NCBI GenBank assembly: GCA_038087875.1
Contig: CM075993.1
Span: 8,496,001-8,560,000 of the forward strand
DNA length: 64,000 nucleotides
Direction of reading: 5' to 3'
From: Malacoraja senta
Taxonomy: Eukaryota
This document shows, in pieces, positions 4,385-61,708 of this stretch; the first letter of the stretch is position 1, and each line of letters begins with the position of its first letter. A model generated the notes under the pieces. It worked only from the letters and a program-made list of their open reading frames with translations, had not been told where the DNA came from and searched no databases. Position numbers and translations under genes: made by a program.

Positions 4385-6110
4385 AGTCATACTGCACAGA
4401 ATCAGGCCCTTTGGCTCAACTCAAGATACCCCACCTAAGTTTGTCTTATTTTCCCATATTTTTCTCAAATCCCTCAAATCCCTCTAAACCGTTCCTATCT
4501 ATGTACCTATCGAAATGTTTTATAAATGGTGTTATTATATCTGCTTTACCTATTTCCTCTGGCAGCTTGTTCCATATACCCAATACCCTATGTGAAAAAG
4601 CTGCCCCTCAGATTGAACCTTTTTCCCCTCACCTTAAACTATGCACTCTCGTTCTTGATTTCCCTCAGCTGAAAAATAAGACTGTGCATTCACACTATCT
4701 ATTCCCCTCATGATTTTATATACCGCTATAAGATCACTCCTCAGCCTCCTGTGTCCCAAGGCATAAAGCCCTAGCGGGTCCAACCTCTCCCTATAACTCA
4801 GACCCTCGAGTTCAGGCAGCAACCTTGTAAATAGACAAGGTTGGCTGAAGAGTGTAGGAAGGAACTGCAGATGCTGGTTTAAACTGAAGATCGACACAAA
4901 AATCTGGAGTAACTCAGCGGGACAGGCAGCATCTCTGGAGAGAAGGAATGGGTGACGTGTCGGGTCGAGACTCTTCTTCAGACTAGTCAGGGGAAAGGGT
5001 TAACGAGAGATATAGATGATGTAGAGAGATATAGAACAATGAATGAAAGATATGCAAAAAAGTAATGATGAGCAAGGGAACAGGTCATTGTTAGCTGTTT
5101 GTTGGGTAAAAACAAGAAGCTGGTGCGACTTGGGTGGCTGAGGGATGGAGAGGGAGGGAATGCCGGGCTTACTTGAAGTTAGAGAAATCAATATTCATAC
5201 CACTGAGCAGTAAGCTGCCCAAGTGAAATTTGGCTGAAGAGCCTATTTCCATGCTGTACTAAATCTTCTCTGCATTCTTTCCAGCCTAATGGCATCTTTT
5301 CTATAGCAGAATTACCAAAACTGAACACCATTCACCGCCTGCCTCACCAACATATGGTACAACTGTAACATATCGTCCCAACCTGTATACTCAATTCCCT
5401 GTCTGATGAAGGCCAACATGCCAAAAACATTCTTCACCGATCTATCTAGCTACAATGCCACTATCCGGGAGTATGTACTTGTACTCCTGGATCTCTCTGT
5501 TCTACAACATTCTCCATGGGCCTTCCGTTCACTGTGAATGTCTTGTCCTGATTTGACATCCTGAATACAACAACACCTCATATGTTTTCTGTATTAAACT
5601 TAATCAACCATTTCTCGGTCCACTTCCCCAGCTGATCATGATCCCGCTGTAATTCTTGATACATCTTCACTGTTTACCATCTGATCATACCATCTATTTT
5701 AGTGCCATCTGCACACTTACTAATCACTTACTTGTACATTCTCATCCAAATCATTGATATAAACCACGAACGGCCATGGGCCCAACAACGCTCCCTGAGG
5801 TACACGACTAGTCGCAGGCCTCCAGTCTGAGAAACAACCTTCCACCTCTCTGCTTCTCACCATGAAGCCGATTCTGTATCCAGTTCGCTGGGTTTCCCTG
5901 GATCCCATGTGATCTAACCTTCCAGGGCAGTCTGCCTTGCTCATCATTACTTTTTTGCATATCTTTCATTCATTGTTCTATATCTCTCTACATCATCTAT
6001 ATGTCTTGCTGAAATCCATATAAACCATGTCTATGGCCCTCCCCTCATCAACCTTCCTGGTTGCTTCTTCAAAAAATCAAATTCATGAGAAGCCATCTCC
6101 CACCACACAA
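4385..6110 (-). mobile_element. Fragmented CR1 LINE interrupted by a PLE 3' fragment
   Basis: Minus-strand peptides LEGLSYRERLDPLGLYALGHRRLRSDLI and FSDWRPATSRVPQGALLGPWPFVVYINDLD. Confidence 0.8.
4853..5230 (-). mobile_element. Penelope 3' fragment: endonuclease C-terminus plus pLTR with a mutated hammerhead
   Basis: Minus strand encodes FHLGSLLLSGMNIDFSNFK*, matching the C-terminus of the PLE near 23525-23585. The pLTR module lies at 4853-4984. Confidence 0.8.
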
Positions 6111-6114
6111 CCTG

Positions 6115-6252
6115 TGTAAGAAAGAACTGCAGATGCTGGTTTAAATCAAAGGTAGACACAAAATGCTGGAGTAACTCAGCGGGTGAGGCAGCATCTCATA
6201 CTGAAGAAGGGTCTCGACCCGAAACGTCGCCCATTCCTTCTCTCCAGAGATG
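6115..6252. repeat. Rearranged PLE pLTR fold-back fragment
   Basis: agacacaaaatgctggagtaactcagc arm followed by an opposite-orientation ctgaagaagggtctcgacccgaaacgtc arm. Confidence 0.75.
6201..6228 (+). ncRNA. Minimal hammerhead ribozyme motif (PLE-derived)
   Basis: ctgaagaagggtctcgacccgaaacgtc, intact core with a GUC triplet. Confidence 0.65.
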
Positions 6253-7407
6253 TCCTGGTATGTTCATATTCTTAGATTGGCACACTTTTTTGGCATTATT
6301 TCAGTTGCAACCTTTACACAACTTAGAGGGAATGATTAGCACGGTAAATGGCAGAGATCCGACCCGAATCTCAACCAATTGTGAATATTATACAGTTCTC
6401 AAATCATCCTGAATAAACATTTGATGTCCTGGGCAAGAGCATGAACGTCCAGCACTTCTGCCCAAAGTCCTTCATGTTTTTAATTAAGATCTATCCACCA
6501 AAGAGGAAGCAGCTCTTTGAATTTCTAAGTCCTCAATATTTCACGGACAAATTAACATAAAAATAAATTTAAACAAGACTGAGATTTGAAAGGCTGTATT
6601 TGCTCAGCAGGTACGCCTCCCATGATGGCATCACCTACACTTTAAATTGTAGGTAATTCTATATCAAGTAACAGTAATTTTCCTATGAAACGTTGCCGTA
6701 TAAAAAGTCATGTTATAGCCAAACAGGCGAGAGTTGCCTTCAAAGCGCAGATATAAACAGGATTTCCGATCATGATCACGCTATAACAAATATGGGCCAT
6801 ATAACGTTCCCTAATCCATGAACCCATGAATCACGTTAGAACTGAATCTCGTTCTGGAATCGTGCTTCATAGCAGATCTACCTGTGCTCCCACAGCACTG
6901 GCTGAGATCACTGTACATTCTCCCGTCCACGTGCTGTCTTTCTGGCCAGTTGGTGAATGGGCCCTGGCAGAAAACTCAGAAGATTTACATCCCACTAAAT
7001 GAATACATTTCTCCATCTCTTTCTAACACAGCTGATGCCTTATCACTCGATTGTGGCCCTTTGTTCTAGACTGCAGCTTGCTGCATCTGACGTGTGTGTG
7101 TCAATGAAATCATCTCTCATCCCTCTTAACTGCAGTGAGATGACCTAATTTCTTGTCACCGGACAGTGCTCTCATCTCTGGCACAATCCAATGGAATCTT
7201 TCCACTGTCTTCAAGGTTCTCACACCATAAGCACGCTGGAACCATAAACGCAGTGCTCCAGGTGTGGTCACGCTGATGTTTTATACAATTGCTGTCATTT
7301 AAACGGCCGTGGAGACGGTGGGACAAGATGGCATGTCATTCCATTCACATTCAGTTTACATTTTATATTTAAGATGGATACAAAAAGCTGCAGTAACTCA
7401 GCGGGAC

Positions 7408-7491
7408 AGAATGCCTAGTAATTGTAACCCCGCCTAATTATAGCATTCATAGTGTAAGATCCTACCCACTGTCTACCGGTACCAGTAGCAG
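7408..7491. repeat. Left arm of an 84-bp inverted repeat
   Basis: Reverse complement of 8818-8901 with one mismatch. Confidence 0.95.
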
Positions 7492-8833
7492 TGTGAACGT
7501 GTGATGACCTGCTTAGAAGTTAATGACCTGAACAATAACGATGCTTGTGTTTCAACCTGTGTAAGTCTGAGCTCTTTACATGGTATCAGAAGTGGGATCA
7601 GGTGACCATGATAATCAATAACAAACCTCTGATCGCCAAAGTCGATACCGGCGCCAGAGTAAACGTCATGTCACTCAAAGTGTTGAACAAGATAAGGACC
7701 ACTGAGCTCATGAAAAAAGACTCCTCCACTCTACATGCTTACGGAGGGGAAATTCTTCACCCGCTGGGTAAAGCTGATCTCAAATGTACCATCAATGAAC
7801 AGACCAAGAACTTACTTGTCTACATCGTCCAACCAAGTTCTGAGACCCTGCTAGGCATCAATGCATGCCATGACTTGGGTCTGGTCTATTTCGGGCGTGC
7901 TGTCCACAAACTCTGTCTGACAGAGGAACCAACGAAACAGATGCTATCCAACTATAAAGACTTGTTTGACGACAAACTCGGCAAACTACCGACAGTATAC
8001 AAGATCATTGTTGACCATATGGTCACCCCGATCGTACGTGCTCCTCACCGCGTCCCGCATGGCATGGGTGAGAAAACACACGATGAACTAAAACGTATGG
8101 TCTCTATCGGAGTCATTGCCGAAGTCAGCGAACCCTCTGACTGGGTCTCCACCATGGTTGTCACCACATAGAAAGACAAGGAGTTACGCATCTGCATCAA
8201 TCCTAAAGATTTGAACACAACAATCAAACGCCAACACTACCCAATGAGAACTACCGAGGATATAGCGGCACGAATCGGCAACGCAACGGTGTTCTCAGTT
8301 TTGGATGCCATAATTTATTTCTGGCAAATCCCGTTAGACTGTGCCTCATCGGCGTTAACAACCTTCACCACCCCGTTTGGCCGTTACCGATTCCTAAGAA
8401 TGCCCTTCGGTATCAACTCTGCTAGCGAAGCCTTCCAGCGTGCAATGAAACAACTGTTCGCAGAATTTCCTTGTGCCACCGTCCTTGTGACGACATCCTA
8501 GTTTACGGCCAAGATGCGACCGAGCATGATGCCAACCTACGTAAGGTGCTGGACCGTGCCAGAGACATTAATTTAAAACTGAACCCTCTGAAGTGCAAGT
8601 TCAGAGTTCCTGAAGTCACCTACCTAGGGCACGTGTTCACCAGCAACGGGTTAAAACCTGATCCGCTGAAGACTGAAGCAATCAACGAGCTGCCGGTACC
8701 AACTGACGTCACCAGCCTACAACGGTTTTTAGGTATGGTCAACTACCTGGGCAAATTCATTCCCAATCTCAGCGAATTGTCAGCCCCTCTGCATCAACTA
8801 ACCCACAAGGACAACACCTGCTACTGGTACCGG
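7492..8833 (+). mobile_element. Decayed Ty3/Gypsy pol fragment: aspartic protease, RT, connection region
   Basis: KVDTGARVNV; SDWVSTMVV; LRICINPKDLN..IKRQHYPM; FSVLDA..FWQI; TPFGRYRFLRMPFGI; DDILVYG; LQRFLGMVNYLGKFIPNLS. In-frame stop at 8169-8171 and a frameshift near 8480. Confidence 0.92.
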
Positions 8834-8901
8834 TAGACAGTGGGTAGGATCTTACACTATGAATGCTATAATTAGGCGGGGTTATAATTACTAGGCATTC
8901 T
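8818..8901. repeat. Right arm of the 84-bp inverted repeat
   Basis: Reverse complement of 7408-7491 with one mismatch. Confidence 0.95.
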
Positions 8902-11437
8902 AATTGGCTAACATGCTATAGCCAATCTACAATATGCAACCTAACGGAGGAATTTAACTGCTTTCAGTCCCATGAATGTCTATATATCCACTAAGTTCCA
9001 CCTTCCCCTTTGATTGTTAATGCTCTTGATTTGTATTTTGTACCCTCTGCTGTGAAGGTATAAAACCTTTAACTTCCCCATTCTTTCCTTTTGTGCGGTG
9101 AAAGTTATCTTCACCGGTAAGGCTAGCATTTATAGCCTAGAACATAATGAGCTCACAGCACCCTGTGTCTTAACAGGACTTGCAGAGGACCATTGGGGAC
9201 AAACACAAACGCTGCAGGACCTCAGAAGGTCAGGCAGCATCTGTGGAGGGAATTTACAGACGACGTTTCAGCTCACTGTACAAGGGCCCCACCCATAAAC
9301 ATGGTCTGGCCATTCTCTCCACCGATGCTGCCTGACCCACTGAGTTCCTCCAGCACTTTGTTTTTTGCTTGTGATTCCAGCATCGGCAGTCACTTGTGTC
9401 TGTAGTTGGATGTTGTTTTTGTGGTGATGTGATACAATAGTGTGGCTAGGCTATTTCAGAAGACCACAGAAATGTGGGTCTGAAGTTAACGGGCTGGCCC
9501 AGGCCTTGAGGAGGTTAATCATTGCATTTGATGGTGATAACCGTTTCCGATAATGTTTCTTTAAATAAATGTAATTAACTTAATTATTATTTACCATGAT
9601 GGTGTGGAGGGATTTGAATTTGTCTCCAGTAGATCAGTCGTCTCTTTGGAATTAATGGTTCAATATCATAACCAGTAAATTACTGCACTGCTGTTTATAA
9701 ATGACTTTGGAGTTGCCTTTTATGTTCCCCACTAATTTGATGTTCATACATTCTTCTTCTCCTCACTTCCTTTTTCTAATTCCATCCTACACTTTTCACA
9801 TACCTCTGTGCCCACTTATTCTCCACATAATTACTGCCGTCTCAGCCGTGTTTACTCTCAACCGCCATGCTTCATTTGTACCGTGTTCTTGTGTTTCGTA
9901 AAAGTTCACTCTCTTTCGCTTATGCTCCACCGTTGCAAACTCTCCCAGTAGTTTTGGCAAAATTATAAGTCTGTCAGGAAGAGAGATGGTGTGTGTCAGT
10001 GGGAGAGATGGAGTGTTCCTGTGGGAGAGAAAGGTGTGTGTGTGTGGGAGAGGGAGAGGGAGGGAGGGAGGGAGGGAGGGAGAGGGAGAGAACCTGTGGG
10101 AGGGAAAGGAGTGTGTCAGTGAGAAAGAGATGGGTTTCTCAGTGAGAGAATTTAGCCACAATTTGATTACTTTCCCTCTGGACTTTTTATTTCCTAATGG
10201 AATACAAATATTATTTACAGTTCATTGAATGTTAGACTCTGCTTATCTATTATATATTTTTCAATCTACTTGAGCACACGTTGGACATGTTGAATTTGTT
10301 TTTTAAAAGGCACAATGCAAGAGGAACTCATTGCACCAGCCAGCATCCCTGGAGAACATAGATAGGTGACGTTTCATGTTGAGAACTTTCTTCAGAATGT
10401 TGTCGGGTGTGTTTTGAATGGATGTATTCAAATCCATTGAATGGATTTAAGTTTGATTTAGAGTATTGTTGCATCTGTTGCCTTCAAACCCTATATTGTA
10501 TTCTTTCATATTATAATTACTTTTCCCTTGGCATGTGGAGTGCAGTTCCTTATACAAAAAAGGATCTAAAATAATCAGTCCTGTGGTTAATTCAAAACCT
10601 TAAATGGTAGAAGAAACCTTTACCACTACACTTGATGAATTTAATCTCTAATCTGCTTAATTGTATGTGATTAAAGTCCCCTATCATTACTGCATTAGGT
10701 TTGTTTCTAGACATTGTGTACTTTTCTCTCACCCCGTCTCATCCAGGCTCCCATACCGTCTCACTGCAACTTAGTCGAGGTAACTCAAACAGCGAGATTA
10801 TTATAAAGCAAAAGCATGCATTTGTAAAGAACCCTTGAATATGGGGAAATTCCAAGGTGCATCACGGGCACATAATTTGTTAAGAATTGTCACAGGAGAC
10901 TTTAAGAGGGACAGCTCTAAATGCTTGCTGAAAAGTGAGCGTGGGTGGGGGGGGGGGGTCAAGGCTGTTTAGGAATGCAGGATCATTCAATTGGCAAGGT
11001 CAAGGATTGTTTGTGTAAATAAAAAAGCCCCATACCACGTGAAAGTGGTTTCTGGGATTATTTAATGAGCTGATTTAAAATGTTCCTTTACGATCTCTGG
11101 TTATCCTGCTGTCAGAAACTCCCCAAGGTTGCACGGTGGACGTGTTGTCTGAGCCCCATGTGGCACCTGACAGCCTGCCTTTGGCACCAGGACGACAAGT
11201 CTTGGCATGGGGCAATCTTTGTGCAGTACAGAATGTTCCATCCAAAGGAGTGCCTGTTCACTTCAGTCATTAAATACTGGCATGGATCTGACTGATTCGC
11301 AGCAACCCGCAATGACAGTGGGTGGCGGGCCTCAGAAGCAGGCAATGCAACACACAACTTCTGGGTTCCTGCTGCTAGACCTCTGAACTCCTTTCGACGA
11401 AACTAAAGTGGCCAGCAATATGATTTCTGAAATCGGT

Positions 11438-11965
11438 GGCATCTCTGGAGAAAAATACTAGGTGACGTTTCGGCTCTCTCTCTCTTCTTCAGACTGAAAG
11501 CAGGGGGTGGGGTTGAGGGAGTGGGGGTGAAGAAGAACTGCAGGCAAGAAAACACCAGGAAAAAAATCATGGCTGGCCACAAAAGACTTTAGGCGGGGTG
11601 GTGCCCTGTAGGCCCATTGTTGACCAGTGAAGGTGTGATCTCAAGAGGGAATCAATGTGGAGAACTATGGAACTGGTAAAACGACCTATGTGGAGGAAGG
11701 AGGGGTGGGGGGGGAGAGAGTGTAGGTTACTTAAAATCAGATAATTCAATGCTCATATCGCTGCAATGTGAGCTACTCAAGCAAAATGTGAGATGCTGCT
11801 CCTCCAATTTGCATGTGACCTCACTCTGTCAATGGGGGAGGCCGAGTACAGAAAACTCAGCATGGGAATGGAAAGGAGAGTTGGAATGTTGGAAACCAGG
11901 AGATCCTATGCGGACCCCTGCGTAAGTGTTAGTGAAACGGCCGCCGAGTCTACATTTGGTCTCAC
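11438..11965 (-). mobile_element. Older degenerate Penelope 3' fragment
   Basis: gatgctgctcctccaatttg, ggagagttgg and ttggtctcac parallel the PLE at 23520-23770. pLTR remnant at 11438-11496. Confidence 0.7.
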
Positions 11966-13437
11966 TTTGACGAAACTAGACTGGGAACTGTTTACCTTCT
12001 ATTTTATTTTCCTCCGGGAACAGTGAATATGATTTCACTGAAGTTGCCAATTATAGACAGAAGCAGCCAGCTGGACCTGTCTTGCTTGCTCCCTGTATCC
12101 TCATCTGTTCAACGGTTCCTGTTTGTGATGTTGAAAACTTTGCTTGTCGTTATGGCTGCTTTTCTTGCCCAGAGGGCAGGGAGGGGGGAGGTAGATGGAA
12201 TAACAAGGAACGACACAAGAACCACCCTTCACCCTCTCTTTCCCCCCCCTGCTGCCCCCACCACTCTGGAGGCCTGACTGACCTCGCACCAGTTTCTCCC
12301 CTCCCCGTCTGCTTGTACAGTTTATAATGGATACCCAATTCACAACTTTTCTGTCACTAAGCTTAACAATGTTCAACTCTTCATCCTTTTGGGCTCTTCA
12401 TCTTGGGTCTCTGTCCAACAAGCTGCCGATCAAATAACCCCCTCACCAGTGTTCGCCGATTACCACTCCCCTTTCCCCACCTCTCTCTCAGCTTTCTTCC
12501 TCCCCCCCGTTCAATCAGTCTGAAGAAGGGTCCAGCTGTGTTACGCCAGCATTTTACATCTATAGGAGGTAGATGGAGACTGAATGTTGTTGGGATCAAT
12601 TCAGGATGCAGGGTATATCAAACTGAACTGGTTCTCATTCGCCTGTAATGGTGACAGGGGCTTAGTGGACCTGTTTTGAGGCAGTGTTGGTGTTCTATCG
12701 GGTTTGCAACAGGCTATCTGATATTTGACAGTGAGCAGGTACACAGAGCTTCAGATTGCATGCCTCTGCCTCTGACAACCCCAGATGGGTTTTGTAACAA
12801 ACGGACAATCTCGCAGTCAGATTCCAGCTCTTCTCACCAGATATTGATTATTTTATAAACAGCTGTTGTAGTTGAGCTGATTAATTGGTTAATGCTTTTA
12901 TTTATGTCCAGAAATCAAAACCTGTGCATTTGTGCACTCTGCCTGTGATAGGTACTTGTTCACTAAACACCTACTTCGCATATTGTCTCAGAATAAAGCA
13001 GTGGTTTTGTTGGCTTTCTTAGAAGCTGAACTTGTGACCTGGATCACTCGGGTTTCTGCCCTCTCAACAACACCATTTCCGCATGGCCTTCTGAGTGTTT
13101 CCAGCATTTTCTGTGAATTATAGAAATGCTTTATCCAATTTTCATAGCAGCTTGAGCAGAAACCCGAGTGTGTTCTCTCTCGAGCTGCTCTCAAAGTGAT
13201 GCTCCATTTGGATTCCCAGGAATTCCCTGCACTTGCTGACTCACAGAATTTTTCCTGTTGCTTCGCTTATCCCAGGGGCAAAGGCTGCTATACCAGTAAT
13301 CTGTGATGTTGCTGGAATGAACAAGATGGATGGAGAGTTATTTTGAGGAACTGTTCTCTACTGGAGACATACATGCCCGCTGTCCACTTCATTTACTGTA
13401 GATTTTGAATCTGAAGCTTTTGTCACATAAGGATATA

Positions 13438-16400
13438 TAGAAACATAGAAAATAGGTGCAGGGGTAGACCATTTGGCCCTTCGAGCCAGCACCACCATTC
13501 AATATGATCATGGCTGATCATCCAAAATCAGTACCCCGTTCTGGCTTTTCCCCCCATATCCCTTGATCCCCTTAGCCCTAACAGCTAAATCTAACTCTCT
13601 CTTGAAAACATCCAGTGAATTGGCCTCCACTGCCTTCTGTGGCAGAGAGTTCCGCAGATTCACGACTCTCTGGGTGCAAAAGTGTTTCCTCATCTCAGTC
13701 CTAAACGGCCCACCCCTTATTCTTAAACTGTGACCCCTGGTTCTGGACTCCCCCAACATCGGGAACTTTTTTTTTCTGCATCTACCCTGTCCAATCCTCT
13801 AAGCATTTTATATGTTTCTATAAGATATCCTCTCATCCTTCTAAATTCCAGTGAATACTAGCCCAGTCGACCCATTTTTTCATCATATGTCAATCTCGCC
13901 ATCCTGGGAATTAACCTGGTGAACCTACGCTGCACTCCCTCAATAGAAATAATGTCCTTCAAATTAGGAGACCAAAAGTGCACAAAATACTCCAGGTGTG
14001 GTCTCACTAGAGCCCTGTACAATTGCAGTAGGACCACCTTGCTCCTAAATTCAAATCCTCTCGCAATGACGGCCAACATGCCATTAGCTTTCTTCATTGC
14101 CTGTTGTACCTGCATGTTCACTTTCAGTGACTGATGTACAAGCACACCCAGGTCTCGTTGCACCTCCCCTTCTCCTAATCTGACATCATTCAGATAATAA
14201 TCTGCCTTCCTGTTCTTGCCTCACATTTATCCACATTATACTGCATCTGCCATGCTTATGCCCACTGACCCAACCTATCCAAGTCACCCTGCAGCCTCAT
14301 AGCATCCTCGTCGCAGCTCACACTGCCACCCAGCTTTGTGTCATCCGCAAACTTATATAACCATATAACCATATAACAATTACAGCACGGAAACAGGCCA
14401 TCTCGGCCCTTCTAGTCCGTGCCAAACACTTACTCTCACCTAGTCACATCTACCTGCACTCAGACCATAACCCTCCATTCCTTTCCCGTCCATATACCTA
14501 TCCAATTTATTTTTAAATGATGAAATCGAACCTGCCTCCACCACTTCCACTGGAAGCTCATTCCACACAGCTACCACTCTCTGAGTAAAGAACTTCCCCC
14601 TCATGTTACCCCTAAACTTTTGTCCCTTAATTCTCAAATCATGTCCTCTTGTTTGAATCTCAATGGAAAAAGCTTATCCACGTCAACTCTGTCTATCCCT
14701 CTCATAATTTTAAAGATCTCTATCAAGTCCCCCCTTAACCTTCTGCGCTCCAAAGAATAAAGACCTATCTTGTTCAACCTTTCTCTGTAACTTAGGTGCT
14801 GAAACCCAGGCAACATTCTAGTAAATCTCCTCTGTACTCTCTCTATTTCGTTGACATCTTTCCTATAATTTGGCGACCAAAATTGTACACCATACTCCAG
14901 AATTGGCCTCACCAATGCCTTGTACAATCTTAACATTACATCCCAACTTCTATACTCAATGCTCTGATTTATAAAGGCCAGCACACCAAAAGCTTTCTTT
15001 ACCACCCTATCTACATGAGATTCCACCTTCAGGGAACTATGCACAGTTATTCCTAGAACCCTCTGTTCAACTGCTTCCTCAATTTGCTACCATTTACCAT
15101 GTACGTCCTATTTTGATTTGTCCTGCCAAGATGTAGCACCTCACACTTATCAGCATTAAACTCCATCTGCCATTTTTCAGCCCACTCTTCCAAATGGCCT
15201 AAATCTCTCTGTAGACTTTGAAAATCTACTTCATTATCCACAACACCACCTATCTTAGTATCATCTGCATACTTACTAATCCAATTTACCACACCATCAT
15301 CCAGATCATTGATATATATGACAAACAACAGTGGACCCAACACAGATCCCTGAGGCACCCCACTAGTCACCGGCCTCCAACCTGACAAACAGTTATCCAC
15401 CATTACTCTCTGGTATCTCCCATTCAGGCACTGTTGAATCCATCTTGCTACTCCACTATTAATACCCAACAATTGAACCTTCTTAACCAACCTTCCATGT
15501 GGAACCTTGTCAAAGGCCTTACTGAAGTCCATATAGACAACATCCACCGCTTTACCCTCATCAATTTCCCTAGTAACCTCTTCAAAAAATTCAAGAAGAT
15601 TAGTCAAACATGACCTTCCAGGCACAAATCCATGTTGACTGTTCCTAATCAGACCCTGTTTATCCAGATGATTATATATATTATCTCTAAGTATCCTTTC
15701 CATTAATTTGCCCACCACTGATGTCAAACTAACAGGTCTAGAATTACTAGGTTTACTCTTGGAGATGTTACATTTAATTCCCTTGTCTAAATCGTTAATA
15801 TATATTGTAAACAACTGGGGTCCCAGCACCGAGCCTTGCGGCACCCCACTAGTCACTGGCTGCCATTCTGAAAAGGACCCGTTAAGTCCTACTCTTTGCT
15901 TCCTGTCTGCTAGCCATGTCAATTACCTACCCCCAATACCATGTGCTCTAATTTTACACACTAATCTCTTGTGTGGGACCTTGTCAAAGGCTTTTTGAAA
16001 GTCCAGATACGCCACATCCACTGGCTCTCCCTTATCCATTCTACTTGTTACATCCTCAAAAAATTCCAAAAGATTAGTCAAGCATGGTTTCCCCTTCATA
16101 AATCCATGCTGACTTTGACTGATCCTGCCACTGCTTTCCAAATGCACTGCTATAGCATCTTTAATAATCGACTCCAGCATCTTCCCCACTACCGATGTAA
16201 GGCTAACTGATCTATAGTTCCGTTTTCTCTCTCCCTCCTTTCTTAAAAAATGGAGTTACATTGGCTACCCTTCAATCCACAGGAACTGATCCAAAGTCGA
16301 GAGAACATTGGAAAATAATCACCAATGCATCTACGATTTCTTGGGCCACCTCCTTGAGTACTCTGGGATGCAGACCATCTGGCCCTGGGGATTTATCTGC

Positions 16401-16868
16401 TTTCAGCCCCAACAGTTTACCTAACACCGTTTTCTGATTAATGTGGATTCCCTTCAGTTTCTCCCTCCCATTAGATCCTCGGTCCCCTAGTATTTCCGGG
16501 AGATTGTTTGTGTCTTCCTTAGTGAAGACAGAACCACAGTACTCGATTAACTGTTCTGTCATTTCCTTGTTTCCCATTATAAATTTGCCTGTCTCTGACT
16601 GTAAGGGACCTACATTCATCTTCACTAACCTTTTCTTTTTTACATACCTAAAGAAAGTTTTACAGTCAGTTTTTATATTCCCCACAAGCTTTCTTTCATG
16701 CTCTTCCACCCCCCCCCCCTCTTAATTAACCCCTTTGTCATCCTCTGAGTTCTAAATTTCTCCCAGTCCTCTGGTTTGCCACTGCTTCTGGCCAATTTAT
16801 ATGCCTCTTCCTTGGATTTAAAACTATCCTTGACTTCCCTCGTCAGCCACAGTTGAGCCGCCTTCCCA
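13438..16868 (-). mobile_element. CR1 LINE, outer copy (13438-14354 and 15758-16868), 5'-truncated
   Basis: KSPGPDGLHPRVLKE, SQHGFMKGKPCLTNLLEFFE, YLDFQKAFDKVPH, GVPQGSVLGP, LYRALVRPHLEY. The 3' tail reads tagaaacatagaaaataggtgcagg on +. Confidence 0.93.
14355..15757 (-). mobile_element. CR1 LINE, inner copy of a different subfamily, nested in the outer copy
   Basis: Has its own RT motifs (SQHGFVPGRSCLTNL, YADDTKIGG) and an (ATATAACC)n 3' tail. The outer copy resumes exactly: gcaaactt|...|ggagatgttac. Confidence 0.92.
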
Positions 16869-17983
16869 GATATATATTAGTGTATTCTCTCCTACAGTCA
16901 ATAGTCATGAGTTAGAACTCTGTTTATCAAAGGTTGCATGCAGTGTTTACAAATGATTCAAGTACATGAGGCATTCTGGTAACGTACTATTATTTGGACA
17001 AACTAGGAAATGATGCCGCGGGAATCAAACGATTCAACACTTCCCCGTCTCCACGGTCCATCCTTCCCCCACGCCCCCTCTGCCGTGCATCATCGCTCCG
17101 TCCCATGTACCTTCTCCCTCCTCCTTCCTTTCCTCCTCCCTTGTGTCTTTTCCCTCATCAATCCCCTGTCCTCTTCATCATTAACTGCCCTCTACTCTCC
17201 ACGGCCCCCTCACAAATGACCACCCCCTAAACCAACTCTCTAGTCAAAACACTAAGTGCTGGAATAATTCAGCAAGTCAGGCTGAAGAAATCATCTCTGG
17301 AAATCATGAATAGATGACGCTTTGGGTCGGGACCCTTCATCAGACTTCACTCTGTCCAGAGTATATTTCTGTAGACCCTAAACATCCTCACCTCCCAATA
17401 GCTAGTCCCTTCATTACCATCCAAAACCCCATTTACTGCCCTGAGCCTTTAGATAGATTTCTACGATCTATCAGCCAACACTGTTGAAAAATTTCAGATA
17501 CAAGTTTTGAAAATTGGATAATTGCACCATTAAGAAAGGCAGCTGTGCATCCATTAGGAATGAGAACCTCATCTATTCATGTTATTCCTTCTTGCCTTTA
17601 GTTCTTGGTCACTGGGTAAATGTCTGATTTTCAAATGAAGATGCAATGTACTGTAGGGCATGACTGCCCAGAACGTAATAGAGTCATCTAGGAAACTATA
17701 AACTTGCTATTGGTGAAGCAGTGTAAATCAGGTTGAAACAAAGATAAATTGCATTTATTATTGAGATTTCAACAGGATATCCTCATTGGCAAGCTTCAGG
17801 TTGCTGAGATTGGATTACATGTGACGCTATTGTGTTTTGAGATTGATTTGAAAGTTCTTATCCGTTGGATGGGTATGGCACAACTTTCTCACTCAGATTG
17901 CAGCGTGATGGACAGATATCACACAATTAAATTCTAAATGTAACCCCAAACATCTGCCAAGCTGCCTCTGGAATCTTGGAAAA

Positions 17984-18251
17984 CAGACACAAAATGCTGG
18001 AGTAACTCAGCAGGACAGGCAACATCTCTGGAGAGAAGGAATGGGTGACATTTTGGGTCGAGACACTTCTTCAGACTGACCAACTTCAGTCTGAAGAAGG
18101 GTCTCGGTATGAATATTGTTTTCACCGTTTCTCTGAAGGGTTTCGACCCGAAACAACTTCTCTCCAGAGATGCTGCCTGTCCTGCTGAGTTACTCCAGCA
18201 TTTTGTGCCTATTTTTGGTGTAAACCAGCATCTGCAATACCTTCCAACACA
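17984..18251. repeat. Compound PLE pLTR fold-back repeat
   Basis: Inverted arms, with an internal gtatgaatattg piece from the endonuclease C-terminus. Confidence 0.8.
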
Positions 18252-19088: not shown

Positions 19089-19624
19089 GTGAAGACTGCA
19101 GATGTTGGAATCTTGAGCAAAACCCAAAGTGCTGGACAATTTCGGGTCAGGCAGCATCTGGGGAGGGAATGGGCAGGTGACATGTCTTTCTGGGACACTC
19201 CTCGTAACCATCTATGCTTATTCCATTTACCTGCACTTGGCCCATAGCATTCTCAGGTTCGGCAACACAAGTGCTCACCGAGGTACTTCAATGTTGAGAA
19301 CTGTCAACCATCTCTCCACACTCATACAGGCCAACTGCCCTCTGAGTGAAAATGTTCTTCCTCAGATTCGCTCTGAATCTCTAGCTTCATCCGAAACCTA
19401 TGCTTTCTAGTCTTATTTACTTCTGTTATTGAGGAAAGTTTCCTCGTCTCCACTACGACCTAATTAATTTTACATACTTCTGTCTACCCCCCCCCCCCCC
19501 CACCCCCCCAGCGCCCTGCACTTCCAGGGAAAACAAATTAATCTCCTTGCGTCTCTTATCACTGCAACAACACTCCTTTGTAAATCTCCTTTACATTTCC
19601 CCAGTGTAATCATGTCCTTGTTAT

Positions 19625-19858
19625 GGAGACACAAGGAACTACAGATATTGAAATCTTGAGCTAAGCACAAATGACTGGAGGAACAGCAGTTCAGGCAGTG
19701 GAGGGAATGGACGAATGATGTTTCGGGTCGGGACCCTTCTTCAGATCCCTCCCCCTCCCCCAACTGCAATCAGTGTCTGAAGAAGAGTCGTGGCCCAAAA
19801 CATCATCTCTTCTTTTCTTCCACAGGTGTTGTCTGATCCGCTGAGTTCAGCACTTTGC
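19625..19858. repeat. Degenerate PLE pLTR fold-back repeat
   Basis: tttcgggtcgggacccttcttcaga, then tctgaagaagagtcgtggcccaaaacatc in opposite orientation. Confidence 0.7.
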
Positions 19859-20197
19859 TTCGATCATATCCTTTGTTATAGTGTGAGGGCCTGTCCCACT
19901 TGGCCGTCATTCACGCCCCATTTACGCGACCTGCTAGCGTGTGGGTAGCACGGGACGGGCGCATGGAGTGGCGTGGAGGAGTGTGGACTTCGTCCTGCAC
20001 AAAATCTTCGCGCGCCACCGGCCTGTCGCGTAACTGACGGCCAAAGTGGGACAGGCCCAAGACCCTGGCGCGGAGCAACGTCTCACCTCCAACAGCAGCA
20101 GAAGCAGGCAAACGATCGCCGAGCTCGGCCTGGGGCTCACGGCCGTTCCGCATCCGGATCCGCCCCCACTCCTACTCCCAGAGCGGGGCCAAGACGA

Positions 20198-22163: not shown

Positions 22164-22282
22164 ACCATTATCTGTATGAATTTCTAATTAAAGCACTGGA
22201 AAAGACCTGAGGTACCAAAATTTCAATGTACCTTCTATACAGGTATAGTACACATTATTATCTAAATTACTCTCTAAATGGC

Positions 22283-24733: not shown

Positions 24734-24736
24734 GTA

Positions 24737-48237: not shown

Positions 48238-50334
48238 GTAAGACCCAAAAATAATCCGTGGAGTCATTTCAGGTTTTCTGCTTTACCAGACGGCATCTTT
48301 TAACTAAGGACATTCATTCAGCTTTCCATTGTCCTGTCTGATTGTAGTGTAGTGTAGTGTAGTGGACAATCACTCAGGACATCACTCCATCATGAAGAGT
48401 GCTGGAAACAGTACAATATTAGCACAGACTAAACTGACACACATGTAAAAAAACAATCTGCCTCCGCACTATTTTTCACATTTCAAGATGGCCCAAAGTA
48501 CTTTGTAAGCAGAGAATAATTTTGTAAAATGCAGTCACTGCTAGGCAGACCTAACATTCAATTTGCACAGAGGAAGATTTTGGTTTTGCGGATGTAGACT
48601 GGGAATTCAATGTTGACCAAGACGTAGAGAACTTCCCTGCTTTTGGAAGGATGCATTTTTTTAATACACTCACCTGGGGCAGCTTACACTCTCGTTTGGA
48701 AAAACAGCATGTTTAACAATGTGGCATTCCTTTAATTGCGCACTACAGTGTTAAGCCCGAGGCCACAGCCAACAACTCAGGAAAAAGAGCTCTTCAATAA
48801 CATAACAATTCACTTGTTCCATTTAACTGTTAAGGATTGCAAAGGGGGAGAAGAGCTATCTACGTAAGTAGTTGTGATCCAATAGTTCTTTATCATAACG
48901 TTGAATAATCAGCCTCTAATCTGAAAACCTTTCCTCATAAACACTCATAGTTATTGGTCAGGATGCAGACATGCGTGTGAATTGTAAAAATCACTCTCAT
49001 TTTGTTTGGAAAAGTGAAGTTCTTACACATTTTTGGATGTTGAACACCATGGTTTGAAGGAAACTTTCTAAAATCAAAAATCCCATTAAAATAACCAATT
49101 TGTAAGCCTGGGCTGACATTGAGACTTGAGATCAAGTTTATGTGGAGTTATTGTCCTTTGTTGAAGAAGTTGATCGAGGAGCAAACAGCCAACCCTACTC
49201 TTCGAGTCAGAGTTGCACGGTTTTGAATGGCTCTCATTCCATCACTCCATCTGTGGAGTGCACTGGCATCATTGAAGCCACTTGATCAGAGGTTAGCAGT
49301 GAAAAATGCACTCTTTTTCACTGACATACATTTCCATTCAGTTAATGATATGCCATGACTGATTTTACAACACTGAGCTGCTTCCAAGCATTTTATATTT
49401 AATTAACTCTCTTAAGGCTTCAGCTTAATGTCTTTAAATTTTGAGAGAGCACACAACTTCTGCTTGCCTAACCTTTCAATGGAGAGAGTATATGCCACCA
49501 GATGTTGCACAGTCCCTAATGTCAACGTAACTATCCAGTTTTTTAGTTGTGATGTACTTTAGCAAAATCCTCCAAATCCTTTACACATACCGACTCTGGA
49601 GTTAAAAACCGTGTGCAATATTTTAACTAGTTATCTGGTGACATTATTCATTATTCATTGCGAGTAAAGTTTACCAGTTGGCCTCATTCCAATTCTAATA
49701 TTAAATTGTGACCAAAATGTGTTACAATTGGACAAGGAGTACACACATAATGTTAATAGCCTAGTATTTTCATATCTGACTGAGCGCCTCAAGGGGCTTG
49801 ACAAATCAGAAGAAAACCTTATTTTTTAAAGACATTGGCTCATTTCACTGATATTGCATGTGGAAGGATGCAGCCTCTTTATTGGAAGGAGAGGGGAAAA
49901 AATCAGTCAGTATTCACTTATCAGCCAGTGACTTCCGGCCCAAGTTAGTGAGTGTGGGGATCGGGTGAGACAGGGTTCATTGCTGCTCTGTGGCTCCGTT
50001 ATATCACCCATGAGTGCCAGGTCCTCACCATAACTGGCGCTCAGGTAAATAAAATGATGAGGTGAGATGACACTGGGTGATCTTCCCATCACATCAAGGT
50101 GTGAAGCATCGTTGGATGCAGGACAACGACAACATTGCAAAAGCAAAAATAAATGTTCACCTCAATCTTAGACGACCATGATATTTATTTCACCGTTACT
50201 TATATTACCTAATTTTAGATTTTTTTTTGCTTGTGATATGGATCCTGTAACTTGTTTGAATTTGTGTTTAAGTGTGATTTCTTTGCTCTTTATACTTTCA
50301 TGGTAAAATTTACTTATACAATATCTTTATTGTT

Positions 50335-51027: not shown

Positions 51028-52870
51028 ATAGAGTCATACAATACGGAAACAAGCCCTTCATCTCAACTTGCCCATGCCGACCAGGATAGTCCATCTATAC
51101 TGGTCCCATCTGCCTGCATTTGGCCCATATCCCTCTAAACATTTCCTGTCCATGTACCTGTTCAACTGTCTTTAAAATGTTCTTATAATACCTGCCTTAA
51201 TTATCTCTTCTGGCAGCTCTTTGCAAATACCCACTATGCTCTGTGTGAAAAAGTTGCCCCTCATTTTCCTATTAAATCTTTCCCCTCGCGCCTTAAACCC
51301 ATGTCCTCTGGTTGTCGGTTTCTCAATTCGGGAACAGATTCTGTGCACTCGCCCTATCCATTCCCTCATGATCTTACACACCTCCTTAAGATCACTTTTC
51401 ATCCTCCTGAGCTCCAAGGAAAAAAGTCCTAGCCTGCCCAACCTCAGACCCTTGAGTCCTGGCAACATCCTCGTAAATCTTCTCCACACTCTTTCCAGCT
51501 TAATATTATCCTTTATATAGCAGGGTGACCATAATTGAACACAATACTCCATCAAAATCTGAAACATAACATCCCAACTTCTATACATAATACACTGAGT
51601 AATGAAGGCCAATGTACACAAAGCCTTCTTGACCATCTTATATACCACTATGTACCAGCAGTCCTAGATCCTTCTGCTCTACAACATTCTCCAATGCCCT
51701 GCCATTCACCCTGAAGTTCCTGTCCTGGTTTGACTTCTGACATCTGCAAAGTTACTAATCATGCTGTCTACATTCTCATCCAAGTCATTGAGATAAACCA
51801 CAAACAGCAATGGGCCCCATTGCCGATCCCCGAGGCACACCTCTAGTCAAAGGTCTCCAGTCAGAAAAATAATCTTCATTCCACCACCACTCTCTGCTTC
51901 TCTATCCAGTTAGCTAGCTCTCCCTCGATCCCTTGTGATCTAACCTTCCAGAGAAGCCTACCATACGGAACCTTATCAAATGCCTTGCTGAAGTCCATAT
52001 AAACGTCTAAGGCTTTGCCCTCATCAACCTTTTTAAATACTTCTTCACAAAACTCAATCAGATTCATAAGACACAATGTCCCACATACAAAACCAGACTG
52101 GTTATATCCCTATTCAGCCCCTCTATCCAAATGCATATATATCTTATCCCTCAGAATCCTCTCCAGCAACTTGCCTGGCTCATTGCTGTATTTTCCATGC
52201 AGTCTTTTCCATGCAGCCCTTCTTTAATAAAGGCACAATGTTAGCCACCCTCATGACTTCCAGCACCTCACCCCTGTCTAATGATGCCTCGTATACCTCA
52301 GTCAGGGAGCCTGCAATTAATTTTCTGGCCTCCCAGTGTCCTCTGATTATCTGATCAGGCTCAGGAGATTATCTACCTTCATACACCTTAGGATTTTCAG
52401 CACTTCCTCAACTTTAATACTGAATGTCCTCAAGACACTTCCATTAACTGTCCCAAGTTCCCCAGTCTTCATGTCTTTATCCATGATAAAAAGAGGAGAA
52501 ATACTCAGAGACCCATACCCTGCAGCTCCACACAGAGATGACTACTTTGGTTTCTGAGGGGCCATATTCTCTCTCTAGTCACTGCCTTTCCCTTAATACA
52601 CATACAATCTATTTGGATTTTCCATAATATTATCTCCTGTCCCCTTGTTTCCTTCCTGATTTCCTTAAGTATGCTCCTCCGTTCCTGAAACTCCTGCAGG
52701 ATTTAATCCCTGCTGCCAGTACCTGTCCCATGCCTCCAGCTGTTTCCTGACCAGAGCCTCAATTTCTCTCATCATCCAAGCTTCCTTACTCCCACCTGCC
52801 TTGCCCTCCACTCTAACAGCATGCCCTGAACTATTATCATCATGCTTTTAACAGCATCCCATCTTCCAAA
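51028..52870 (-). mobile_element. Degenerate CR1 LINE
   Basis: VYMDFSKAFDKVPYGRLLWKV, EYCVQLWSP, MRGNFFTQ. Confidence 0.85.
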
Positions 52871-56464: not shown

Positions 56465-57056
56465 ATAGAAACATAGAAAATAGGTGCAGGAGTAGGCCAT
56501 TCGGCCCTTCGAGCCTGCACCGCCATTCAATATGATCATGGCTCATCATCCAACTCAGTATCCCATCCCTGCCTTCTCTCCATACCCCCTGATCCCTTTA
56601 GCCACACGGGCCACATCTAACTCCCTCTTAAATATAGCCAATGAACTGGCCTCAACTACTTTCTGTGGCAGGGAATTCCACAGATTCACCACTCTCTCTC
56701 TGAAAAAAAAAAATCATCTCGGTCCTAAAAGACTTCCCCCTTATCCTTAAACTGTGACCCCTTGTCCTGGACTTCCCCAACATCGGGAACAATCTTCCTG
56801 CATCTAGCCTGTCCAACCCCTTAAGAATTTTGTAAGTTTCTATAAGATCCCCCCTCAATCTTCTAAATTCTAGCGAGTACAAGCCGAGTCTATCCAGTCT
56901 TTCTTCATATGAAAGTCCTGCCATCCCAGGAATCAGTCTGGTGAACCTTCTCTGTACTCCCTCTATGGCAAGAATGTCTTTCCTCAGATTAGGAGACCAA
57001 AACTGGAGCAATACTCCAGGTGTGGTCTCACCAAGGCCCTGTACAACTGCAGTAGA
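56465..57056 (-). mobile_element. CR1 LINE 3' fragment, well preserved
   Basis: QFWSPNLRKDILAIEGVQRRFTRLIPGMAGLSYEERL. tagaaacatagaaaataggtgcagg tail. Confidence 0.9.
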
Positions 57057-57179
57057 ATATCCACTCATGTCACGCATCCTGAGCAAAGCGTAGTCAAAGT
57101 CGGGGAACTGACTGTCATTCTGATTCCACAGTGGGAGTGGACAATTTAAAGCAGTATAGATTTTACAAGGCATTTGAGT

Positions 57180-57692
57180 ATTTGTGTTCAATTTAGGTCA
57201 CGCTGCTATAAAAAGGATCCCGTTAAGCTGGAAAGAGTGCAGAGAAGATTTATGATGATATTGCCAGGACTCTAGGCCCTGAGCACTAAAGAGAGGTTGG
57301 GCAGACTAGGACTTTATTCCTTGGAGCGCAGGAGACTGAGGGGTGATCTTATAGAGGTGGATAAGATCATGAGGGGGAATTGATCGGGTGAATGTACAGT
57401 CTTCTAGCCTGAGTAAGGGAATCAAGAAACAGAGGACATAGGTTTAACATGAGAGAGGAAAGATTTAGTAGGAACCTGAGGGGCAAGGGGTGGTAGGTAT
57501 ATGGAAGAAACTGCTAGAGGAGGTAGCTGAGGCAGGTACTATAACAACATTTAAAAGATAACTAGTACATGGATAGAGTTAGGTTTGGAGGGATATGGGC
57601 CAAATGCGGGCATGTGGGACTAGTGTAGATGGGGCATCTTGGTTAGGATGGGCAAGTGGGGCCAAAAGGCCTGTTTACGTGCTGTACGACTG
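57180..57692 (+). mobile_element. CR1 LINE 3' fragment
   Basis: aagctggaaagagtgcagagaagattta...ggagactgaggggtgatcttatagagg...ggcctgtttacgtgctgtacgact. Confidence 0.85.
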
Positions 57693-59500: not shown

Positions 59501-60198
59501 AGATAAGTTGGAAACCAATGCTCAGAGGAAGGAATTCCAATGTTTCCTGCATTAAACCAGTAACTGCACTTCAAAGAATCAAAGTTAATTGACTACAACG
59601 CTCTTCGGATATACTGGTTTACCCAGCCTTTCTCCATACCATTTTGCCACTCGACAAGTCTGTCAGAGAAATTCTGGCATAAGAACTTCATGCCCACTGC
59701 TCACCACCCGCTAACCCCGCTTGTCACATGTCTCCTGCAGCCTTCCTTTGCCCATGGGGTACTGTGCAATGTGATTCAGGGCACTCACTTTGTAGAGGAT
59801 TACTGAGGTGAGCTTGATGTGGATGTACTGATGTAGCTCAGCAAAGTGAATAATTTCCTTTTCCAAACAGTCGAATCTTTATTAATTTTACAAGTTTCAT
59901 CTGACTAGGCTGAAGTAAATAAAACTGCCCAATTATAATGTTATCCTGAATAGATCAATGGACTTGGGTTAACACTTCAGCAGTTCTGTTTAAACTCTCC
60001 TATATAGTAATGGATTTTGTCACGTTGCATTTTCTTAGAGGATGTTTTTATAGATTCTCCTCATGCCAATATATACTTCAGAAATCCCAGGGTTTTTTAT
60101 TTCCTTCGCTTGGTATAATTTGGTTCTGGATAGTATGCTCATGTCTGTTTGCAGTTGTTGGTTTACTGTAGTGAGTGACCCGGGATTGTACTTTCCAG

Positions 60199-60580
60199 GA
60201 ATCTGAAAGCAGGTTGTGGTCTTACGTGTATCCTAACAAATACTCCGAGCAGCAAAAGGCAGAAGAGGAGCGGTGGAAAGAAGCTGAGCGAGATCGTAAA
60301 TTTAAAGACGAGGGCTCATCGCGAATAAGAAGCAAAGAGATAGCAGTTAAAGAGGAAAGCAAGGACAACATGTGCTTGGAGTCCCGCTCAACGTCACTGG
60401 AAGAATGTCGATCAGTTGGAAAAGATCCCAGATCAGGACTTCACATCCCTGTGTCCTCATCGATGGTCCAGCACCCATCTTACATGCCGTACGTTCATGG
60501 CTACCCTTACGGAAAGCCGTACGAAGCCCCTCATCCAGGATTCCGAGGGGTAACGCCAGTCATGATGCAGAATTATCCAG
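60199..60580 (+). CDS. ZNF609: ZNF609 coding exon, 382 bp (ESESRLWSYVYPNKY...VMMQNYP-G)
   Basis: Acceptor tactttccag, donor ccag|gtacgc. Phase 0 start matches the previous exon. Resembles the ZNF609 segment EAEPRMWTYVYP...VMMQNYPG as recalled. Confidence 0.93.
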
Positions 60581-61112
60581 GTACGCTCATGGGCTCATTT
60601 ATCACGTCGGGTATTGGGGAGAACCATCATCGCAACAAATCAATAAAATCGAGGATAAGAGATCGCTCGATCATCACTTATCCAAACAGTAGCGCAATGT
60701 TCAAGTCAATGGGTGATGAAAGCTATTTCATGAGTAAATGATTTAATGAGATTGAATGAGAAAACGATTTAGAAAATATGCCTCACCGTCAGGCCAAGTA
60801 TGTGCATTGTTTCTTTGTCCAGGCTGTTCCTCATCGCAGGATCAATGCAGGATACGCCACTGACATGACAAGACTTAAATGCAGCCAGTTGTGTTTCTAA
60901 AAGATGAGTAAGGAAACTCAGTCAAAATATTTCAATCAAACTCCCTTCCTTGAAGGGATAGTGCTATAGTTAGCGTGAGTAAATGGTACTGCTGGTCTGC
61001 TGTGAACAGTGAAACTGCCCAGGTTAATCATTGTGAACTATAAAGCTCTGCTCATTTACATTCAAAACTGTGCTTTGTTTACAATTGATTTGGGCCAACA
61101 TTTGTTCTTCAG

Positions 61113-61288
61113 GATCATACCTGTCATCGGGATTCTCTTTCTCACCTTATGCAAGTAAGGTTCCGGGACACGATGACAATGAACGAGCTCATGGGAGTCC
61201 TGGTGTGGGCAACAAGTCAAGCTCTGAATCCATGGCCCTAGATATCTTGCAGCAACATGCCAGTCAGTACAAGAGCAGATCACCCACG
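61113..61288 (+). CDS. ZNF609: ZNF609 coding exon, 176 bp (GSYLSSGFSFSPY...ALDILQQHASQYKSRSPT)
   Basis: Acceptor tttgttcttcag, donor acg|gtaagt. Phase 1 start matches the previous exon. Contains the conserved ALDILQQHAS.YKS.SPT motif. Confidence 0.93.
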
Positions 61289-61469
61289 GTAAGTGTGCAA
61301 GGTCTGTGGACAATATAATCCTTGTATCGCATCCGTCATTCAGTTCCATGCTCTACGCTGGATGAGGTGACTCCCTCCTAAGCTTTGACAGGAAATGGCG
61401 ACGTGCACTTCTGCAGAAGTTAGCAGGATTACTTACGTATAATTGGTGGCTCATCACAGAATCCTTTTC

Positions 61470-61708
61470 GAAGGTAGATACAAAATGCTGGAGTAACTCA
61501 GCTGGACAGGCAGAATCTCTGAAGAGAAGGAATGGGTGACATTTTGGGTCGAGACCCTTCCTCAGTCTGTCTTCAGTCATTATGTCTTCAGTGTAAAGAA
61601 GGGTCTCGACCCGAAAAGTCACTCATTCCTTCTCTCCAGAGATGCTGCCTGCCCCGCTGAGTTACTCCAACATTTTGTATCTAAACCAGCATCTGCAGTT
61701 CTCCCCTA
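61470..61708. mobile_element. PLE pLTR fold-back insertion with 15-bp TSD cacagaatccttttc
   Basis: TSD copies at 61455-61469 and 61709-61723; inverted arms. Confidence 0.88.

Follow-up and report, generated by a model that had tools for sequence, protein, structure and literature searches.

A 64,000-nucleotide stretch of the genome of Malacoraja senta (assembly GCA_038087875.1, contig CM075993.1, positions 8,496,001 to 8,560,000 of the forward strand; here called the window) contains many copies of a module of about 100 bp that carries a minimal hammerhead ribozyme motif at its 5' end. An earlier note, made from the sequence alone, had described these modules as a very high-copy, retrozyme-like offshoot of a Penelope-like element (PLE) of a cartilaginous fish. 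Do they spread by means of their ribozyme, or are they left behind by PLE insertion? PLE integration and the role of the hammerhead are both stated as open questions (Craig et al., 2021, PMC8557442; Frangieh et al., 2024, PMC11167929; what is said here of these and all other cited papers refers to excerpts of them), and sharp module ends would record PLE insertion. We conclude with high confidence that the modules are truncated PLE ends rather than retrozymes. A full mechanism, in which complementary DNAs (cDNAs) of PLE ends are begun at two internal starts and stop upstream of the ribozyme on uncut RNA, is in our judgement probable.

We searched the window with one profile built from 12 window copies and with a second built from 123 blindly sampled genomic copies. 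The first gave 40 matches at E<1 and none in the reversed window, and the second gave 39 matches (E<0.01) that total 3,640 bp and correspond to one module per 1.6 kb. The modules are therefore real, since all 22 coordinates listed previously lie within 60 bp of a profile match, and the earlier estimate of about 20 copies, one per roughly 3 kb, was too low. Seventeen of the 22 coordinates, which had been given as CUGAAGA starts, proved to mark the low end of a minus-strand copy. Of the 39 matches, 20 form 10 inverted pairs, head to head with the CUGA boxes in the centre, an arrangement that had been overlooked; target duplications of 10-15 bp were found at five of the nine window pairs tested.

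A blind sample of one hundred 10-kb stretches picked by round coordinates (998,600 bases) contained 477 module matches, and its reversed controls none, which confirmed the very high copy number. The density of 4.77 per 10 kb (bootstrap 3.99-5.60) extrapolates to 0.78-1.09 million copies, or about 4.5% of the 1.94-Gb genome. On the largest contig the density was 2.85 per 10 kb (20 stretches), and elsewhere it was 5.25 (80 stretches). Two exact 27-letter cores occur 20,906 and 19,354 times in the genome (controls 0). A strict minimal-hammerhead descriptor, which does not require helix I, gave 59 matches in the sample, all of them in this module family (shuffles 0-1), so that no second hammerhead family was found in these 998.6 kb; the extrapolated genome-wide number is about 115,000. 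The module is also present in the contig sets of four runs from relatives, in which contig depth does not equal copy number.

Where does the module belong? At 23329-23421 (minus strand) a copy with a short 3' end terminates a 5'-truncated, frameshifted PLE (23329-24735, minus strand), as the earlier note had read it, about 150 nt past the end of the endonuclease frame. This element comprises reverse transcriptase (RT) pieces, a Cys-rich linker, a GIY-YIG endonuclease, a pyrimidine-rich 3' untranslated region (UTR) and the module, whose core lies at 23394-23421 with a helix I of 2 bp. The endonuclease matched the Pfam GIY-YIG model at E=0.0021, below the Pfam cut-off, and a Pfam scan of the element left the RT fragments unrecognised. 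Its reading frames contain a YIDD-type RT motif and the endonuclease, for which eight homologues were found. The nearest endonuclease relatives are skate proteins (84% and 77%), followed by stingray and gar, in agreement with the proposed cartilaginous-fish host. The frame at 23573-24085 contains a CxxxxCxxC linker, as do the homologues; a zinc-finger-like linker between RT and endonuclease marks Neptune and Nematis (PMC8557442), and by its sequence the parent PLE is likely a member of the Neptune clade.

The module was found at its expected place 3' of the open reading frame (ORF) in 24 of 30 loci of the parent PLE, was displaced by insertion or deletion in four and was missing in two; the Penelope origin is thus borne out in 28 of the 30. 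In three loci of near full length (L162, L163 and L170), the 3' UTR and module continue directly into the N-terminus of the ORF, with the first ATG about 165 nt after CUGA. The module therefore closes one unit and leads the next, in the usual PLE partial tandem. The parent loci also show an optional tail, target duplications and, in four of them, an inverted module near the 5' truncation point. The upstream 3' UTRs fall into at least six groups and have diverged far beyond the module; despite this, most of 47 clustered long copies end in a pyrimidine tract followed by CAGT. An open frame through the module was considered and dropped, as it was not kept in the other main subfamily. The PLE ORF (L162-L190) contains an array of a unit of about 27 bp (a 9-residue repeat), variable in number, between the N-terminal domain and the RT. 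A repeat with a transfer-RNA-like segment, presumably a short interspersed element (SINE), lies at 24735-25040 and adjoins the 5' truncation point of the window PLE; similar copies occur at other loci.

The motif was identified earlier as a minimal type I hammerhead in which a palindromic ACGU replaces helix III, and the strict motifs, distant relatives and an alignment all agree with this. The two caveats raised at that time, an extra A after the CUGANGA box and a helix I of 2 bp, are present as described but are not defects, since the published PLE consensus CUGANGAH includes the extra nucleotide, and Drosophila, Culex and Oikopleura have published motifs with a helix I of this length (Cervera and de la Pena, 2014, PMC4209133, text and Fig. 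S3). In the 59 strict matches, the extra nucleotide precedes stem II in 49, and helix I is 2 bp in 45 and never longer than 3 bp. Among 190 full-core copies, box 1 is kept in 170, box 2 in 123 and CGU in 100 (its loss being CpG decay; H17 is C or U), and all features are kept in only 46. Across subfamilies the two boxes, G10.1-C11.1, ACGU and H17 persist together with three mutable CpGs; in two of six groups, the small-group consensus lines show CpG decay within the core. The stem II loop varies as had been described. All four window cores previously called intact have the boxes, stem II and ACGU-H, but helix I is absent from the core at 6201-6228, where A faces G at its first pair and the match ends at module position 52. 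A search with Rfam did not support the assignment, as no hammerhead match was obtained in the window (E<=1) or in 23360-23460 (E<=10); sub-threshold matches to Rfam microRNA models in the window are two of the palindromes.

We then turned to a distant set of 80 endonuclease-bearing loci from metagenome contigs (42-59% identity), 67 of which have enough downstream DNA. A strict motif lies 180-325 nt downstream in 19 of the 67 (antisense 1; ORF control 0/42), and a motif with about one mismatch in 28 of 47 other distant loci; the distant-locus motif matches the Acropora Neptune entry of PMC4209133. Eleven copies from this genome were aligned with 11 of the 19 distant motifs, all chosen by hand for good preservation. 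In the alignment the boxes are nearly invariant, 98.9% of stem II cells are paired (slid controls 14-55%), and two pairs, one in stem II and one in helix I, are compensatory. Covariation was seen in comparison with distant relatives; within this genome pair changes are one-sided only, with subfamily substitutions preserving pairs as wobbles. As judged from these sequences, the module carries a typical PLE minimal hammerhead, one that is real in the parent lineage.

We then examined the module ends. Module 3' ends cluster near positions 95-100 and 131, giving a unit of 95-135 bp. Two 3' ends correspond to the tail known from PLEs, for which two internal RT starts are the explanation in an anole element (PMC11167929). 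In locus L163 (208-360, oriented minus-strand locus), the stretch past the long 3' end is a repeat of the motif found ahead of the short one, which places the two RT start sites beside direct repeats. At the other end, 103 of 173 solo copies with an intact start end within 10 nt of CUGA and the remaining 70 are spread over more than 400 nt, whereas starts at positions 28-30, the predicted start of cut RNA, occur in only 4 of 315 solos. Since an incomplete upstream library could inflate the 103/173, the boundary was rechecked genome-wide in one young subfamily, that of the 19,354 exact cores. Upstream GT is kept in 16,576 of these, AGT in 13,465, CAGT in 11,448 and ATCAGT in 9,473, and six fixed downstream bases are kept in 16,682. 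Corrected for downstream loss, the share that ends within six bases is about 43%, mostly at -2 or -3, with the rate of loss of parental sequence beyond -6 taken from the blind sample alone. About half of the copies therefore begin 1-6 nt upstream of CUGA, with no excess at the predicted cut site. Among the joints listed for the relatives' contigs, loose ends match the long end, the short end and -3.

As the copies start upstream of CUGA and not at the cut site, they are likely to be short cDNAs from uncut RNA. Target duplications of solo copies measure 8-15 bp and reach at least 8 bp in 21 of 85 (control 1), while 16 of 25 young non-palindromic copies have duplications of 10-15 bp. Solo junctions often show microhomology to AGT or short fillers. 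At three loci (L289, L299 and L300), the 5' junction fillers hold one or several further copies of the target duplication, which points to repeated rounds of priming on the target. We also considered a cap-derived G at -4, for which there is a mild excess (11/25 in the blind sample, p=0.04; 826 of 2,017 non-parental cases genome-wide) that junction inspection did not support.

These boundaries bear on the possibility that the modules are retrozymes, excised by paired hammerheads, circularised and spread via circular RNA. A minimal type I hammerhead and very high copy number are what such elements would have, and vertebrate retrozymes derive from PLE repeats and have one chondrichthyan among their hosts (bioRxiv 10.64898/2026.07.22.740005). 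Direct repeats are also present, as 34 of 35 same-strand neighbours are partial direct repeats. One of these is a run of eight short units (locus L135, near 8135-8500), in which a 33-nt module piece (positions 8-40) is repeated head to tail, a minisatellite born from stem II. However, none of the 35 neighbours holds two intact cores, and of 46 strict cores in the blind sample no two lie on one strand within 1 kb. No head-to-tail array with complete hammerheads was found in the window and no strict same-strand pair within 1 kb in the 998.6 kb, although the rest of the genome may hold rare arrays. The canonical retrozyme format, with a longer helix I and a unit of 150-450 bp, differs from the helix I of at most 3 bp and the 95-135 bp unit seen here, and a head-to-head pair should, by fold prediction, hide its motif within a long hairpin. 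Target duplications vary in length like those of ordinary PLE insertions, copies do not start at the cut site and, as described below, the core decays neutrally, with the catalytic G lost at the neutral CpG rate. We therefore consider a retrozyme very improbable, and the earlier description of the modules as retrozyme-like is not supported.

The truncated-end reading must also account for the palindromes. Of module pairs within 100 bp in the blind sample, 81 are head to head compared to 14 tail to tail and 16 and 19 on the same strand, so that 162 of 477 modules (one third) lie in head-to-head pairs; this corresponds to an estimated 158,000 head-to-head loci in the genome. The 81 pairs have 75 distinct junctions. 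Arms are more similar within pairs (0.84) than between them (0.77), and both belong to the same subfamily class in all 57 classifiable pairs (24 were unclassifiable). Among 60 pairs with both ends scoreable, 46 combine a long and a short end, 11 have two short and three two long ends; 30.6 mixed pairs are expected by permutation (p<1e-4). At 19 of 80 pairs the flanks carry duplications of 9-20 bp (control 2). Distinct junctions, like arms, long and short ends and the duplications indicate that each palindrome is one insertion event, made afresh.

The simplest reading of the palindromes, in our analysis, would be two-strand priming, by analogy with the anole protein, for which extension of both strands is described (PMC11167929). 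The endonuclease would make staggered cuts in the target, and each 3'-OH would prime at one of the two internal start points. Extension of one strand would yield a solo copy; if both were extended, the two cDNAs would anneal head to head and leave one long and one short end, meeting via microhomology, often in stem II or in the TCAG/CTGA mini-palindrome. Published accounts favour self-priming on antisense RNA or endonuclease resolution (PMC3846280, PMC8557442). Self-priming as described in PMC3846280 does not by itself predict the long and short asymmetry, which fits two-strand priming.

Could the module or palindrome instead be a self-contained, non-autonomous family with a few masters of its own, like a SINE or a miniature inverted-repeat transposable element (MITE)? 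Length and boundaries are uniform, transcribed solo copies may be re-copied in trans, and one palindrome is indeed propagated as a unit. Of the genomic matches to 20190-20300, the 29 closest ones fetched all lie within the same element of about 620 bp, which in the window spans 19887-20505 and has 15-bp terminal inverted repeats (TIRs), TWA-like flanks and the module palindrome as cargo, including the core at 20268-20295. The palindrome at 20196-20408 is thus amplified by a DNA transposon and not by its own ribozyme. Copies of the TIR element are 82-93% identical and have an internal copy of their own terminal repeat; we take the layout to be Harbinger-like. Flanks of this carrier were, however, absent from the 998.6-kb blind sample. 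Instead of the fixed ends and fixed-length duplication of a MITE, the palindromes have mostly distinct junctions (75/81), asymmetric ends and duplications of 8-20 bp. In addition, short copies share diagnostic letters with the long PLE subfamilies, their sequence is wholly PLE-derived, and lengths are continuous up to ORF-containing copies. A self-contained family is therefore improbable.

For truncated PLE ends, the position of the 5' stop needs an explanation. Most likely it would be run-off at the end of an RNA that starts at AGU before CUGA, in the repeat copy that precedes the ORF. A rival with the same origin attributes the stop to structure or splicing instead of a transcription start, and we regard it as a serious though less favoured possibility. 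In the structural variant, RT would drop off once the purine box is copied, with RNA and cDNA refolding into a hairpin that sequesters the box; such a hairpin, its base at position 3, is predicted in the RNA, but only weakly in the cDNA (-2.6 to -4.9 kcal/mol). In the splicing variant, the RNA end would come from a 3' splice site at the conserved pyrimidine tract and YAG before CUGA. The tract and CAGT of the 47 long copies are in line with this, the intron of D. virilis Penelope ends at helix I (PMC4209133), and a boundary that covers several bases suits either variant. On the other hand, a spliced-junction pattern had no match in the genome (a weak test, as PLEs retain introns), no GT..AG joint across the repeat occurs among the joints listed for the four relatives' contig sets, and no upstream exon common to 108 solos without long upstream homology was found.

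We next asked whether the hammerhead is maintained in dispersed copies. The CpG that contains the catalytic G is intact in 184 of 361 dispersed copies compared to 229 of 403 for a control CpG outside the ribozyme (p=0.11), and the ACGU CpG in 201 of 376 (p=0.35 against the same control); non-CpG core positions diverge by 5.1% compared to 6.2% outside. Neutral CpG and core divergence indicate that dispersed copies are under no visible selection, whereas parent lineages keep the motif. By these sequence measures the dispersed copies would be inert, and their core decays neutrally. In the predicted fold, the 3' arm of stem II is mimicked by the four bases past the cut site, which join the following pyrimidines in capturing the purine box. 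Lengthening the transcript from position 28 to position 40 lowers the predicted stem II probability from 0.95 to 0.01; the value lies below 0.1 in 38 of 44 intact copies, compared to 0.42-1.0 in four distant motifs. Palindromes are predicted to form single long hairpins (-140 to -186 kcal/mol) without stem II. The hammerhead is thus predicted to be folded off by an alternative hairpin, and cutting would need a partner RNA and protein help.

The same predictions may indicate that the motif is a hammerhead by descent only, which has lost the ability to cut and serves as a signal for protein binding or reverse transcription. The broken third pair of helix I and the lack of an Rfam match agree with this, and the sequence 3' of the cut site is as conserved as the core. 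Set against it are the boxes, G10.1-C11.1, ACGU and H17, kept with three mutable CpGs across subfamilies, the subfamily substitutions that retain pairs as wobbles, and the anole motif, which cut only once protein was added (PMC11167929). We consider this alternative rather unlikely.

Several observations weigh against our reading of the modules as run-off products of a PLE with a switched-off hammerhead. The 5' boundary is spread over -1 to -6 and is not one base, the RNA 5' end near AGU is read from genomic copy ends (contigs cannot show starts), and exactly one extra G, as from a cap, occurs in 1 of 16 duplication-resolved copies. No scoreable duplication was present in 61 of 80 pairs and 64 of 85 solos, presumably owing to age. 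Covariation amounts to two events in two lineages, doubly changed pairs were not in excess over shuffles (433/500), and none of the 11 copies from this genome retains the third pair of helix I. The off-state is predicted from thermodynamics, and the Neptune assignment has two grounds, the linker motif and the likeness of the hammerhead. The most far-reaching version of our reading is put forward as tentative: strong-stop-like run-off cDNAs copied from uncut RNA, about a million of them, together with some 150,000 palindromes primed on both target strands at different internal start sites, would form an Alu-scale fossil record of PLE insertion. This would be evidence in vivo that the PLE protein acts as a two-strand primer and that a conserved switch hairpin holds the hammerhead off, and the copies would make up a SINE-sized repeat class without a master element.

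The remaining head-to-head pairs of the window lie at 6113-6252 (arms 6113-6197 minus and 6201-6252 plus, the latter with the core that lacks helix I), 9179-9394 (old), 17973-18250 (short and long end, complex centre), 19632-19869 (old), 21945-22174 (11-bp target duplication, 21945-21955 / 22164-22174), 29975-30217 (short and long end, 10-bp duplication, core 30080-30107 on the plus strand), 43252-43508 (12-bp duplication) and 61455-61723 (short and long end, 15-bp duplication). At 25155-25435 a palindrome (25226-25421) lies within an older module, with arms that overlap in stem II and a 15-bp duplication (25212-25226 / 25421-25435); the intact core of the pair within the TIR element is on the minus strand. 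Solo modules on the minus strand were found at 4853-4981 (long end, upstream sequence like the 3' UTR of another PLE subfamily), 10285-10395 (old), 17246-17343 and 27432-27549 (old), and on the plus strand at 31343-31440 (AGT just before), 38612-38708, 39825-39929 (3' UTR-like sequence upstream) and 42793-42915 (long end). A partial module lies at 11435-11492 (minus) and one with an internal deletion at 12520-12563 (plus). Partial modules absent from the earlier list are those at 7359-7409 (minus), 13081-13126 (plus), 19089-19193 (minus), 27803-27879 (plus), 30716-30758 (minus), 37042-37122 (plus) and 44150-44200 (plus).

A ZNF608/ZNF609-like gene has several modules between its exons or next to them. 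One long exon was found at 45763-48303 (plus strand; atlas matches 0.93-0.94, PF27627), and we take 60175-60741 (plus) to be a second. Other frames presumably belong to further mobile elements: broken protease and RT frames at 7539-8836 (plus) resemble a Gypsy-type long terminal repeat (LTR) retrotransposon, a 254-residue frame at 32601-33365 (plus) resembles a Tc1-type transposase, and 14634-16721, 37285-38261, 51172-51663 and 56652-57197 appear to be RT fragments of CR1/L2-type long interspersed elements.

A family of about a million copies provides counts beyond the reach of experiments in vitro, for cDNA stops, for the start site on each strand and for the copying of cut RNA. The answer obtained here, with uncut RNA as the likely template and dispersed cores in neutral decay, is in line with the anole experiments and speaks against treating motifs of this kind as active ribozymes. 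At an estimated 4.5% of the genome, with an estimated 158,000 near-perfect 100-bp hairpins, the modules would also matter for the annotation of repeats, for false microRNA calls and for the load of double-stranded RNA. The motif, dispersed truncated copies and inverted repeats with a tail at one end are known in print. New, as far as the literature searched goes, are the instance in a cartilaginous fish, the scale, the boundary upstream of the core, the long and short asymmetry and the predicted off-switch. That search, which did not include subscription papers, Repbase or Dfam, found no account of the module family in skates or sharks nor of strong-stop-like PLE copies; the family may already be in Repbase or Dfam.

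Among known systems, the minimal hammerheads of PLE pseudo-LTRs (PMC4209133) are alike in CUGANGA with an extra nucleotide, G10.1-C11.1, GAAA, the palindromic 15.2-16.2, the lack of helix III and the place in a repeat after RT and endonuclease; they too are mostly dispersed single copies of truncated PLEs, with some pairs on opposite strands. They differ in that cartilaginous fish are not among the hosts named in the excerpted parts of that paper, in number (about 4,000 in coelacanth and 9,000 in Xenopus, compared to the 115,000 extrapolated here with helix I not required) and in the 2-bp helix I and predicted off-state hairpin found here. The anole Poseidon element PAc (PMC11167929) has two adjacent internal RT starts that give the tail, cuts and extends both strands, takes uncut RNA as its substrate and has a protein-assisted hammerhead near the 5' end of the downstream unit. 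It belongs to another clade, its ORF begins at stem II and not at an ATG about 165 nt after CUGA, and a mass of 100-bp products is not described in the excerpts of that report. Endonuclease-bearing PLEs with inverted pseudo-LTRs (Arkhipova et al., 2013, PMC3846280; Craig et al., 2021) share head-to-head repeats, palindromic junctions, solo repeats, a 30-40 bp tail at one end only and 8-10 bp duplications, whereas here two arms of about 100 bp stand without a body at an estimated 158,000 loci. Finally, non-LTR retrozymes (PMC7229834; bioRxiv 10.64898/2026.07.22.740005) have in common with the modules a type I hammerhead, PLE kinship and high copy number, with up to 120,000 motifs in the axolotl. 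They are, however, tandems of 150-450 bp arranged head to tail, which mostly have canonical motifs and give rise to circular RNAs, whereas the modules of M. senta are shorter, solo or inverted, and carry minimal motifs.

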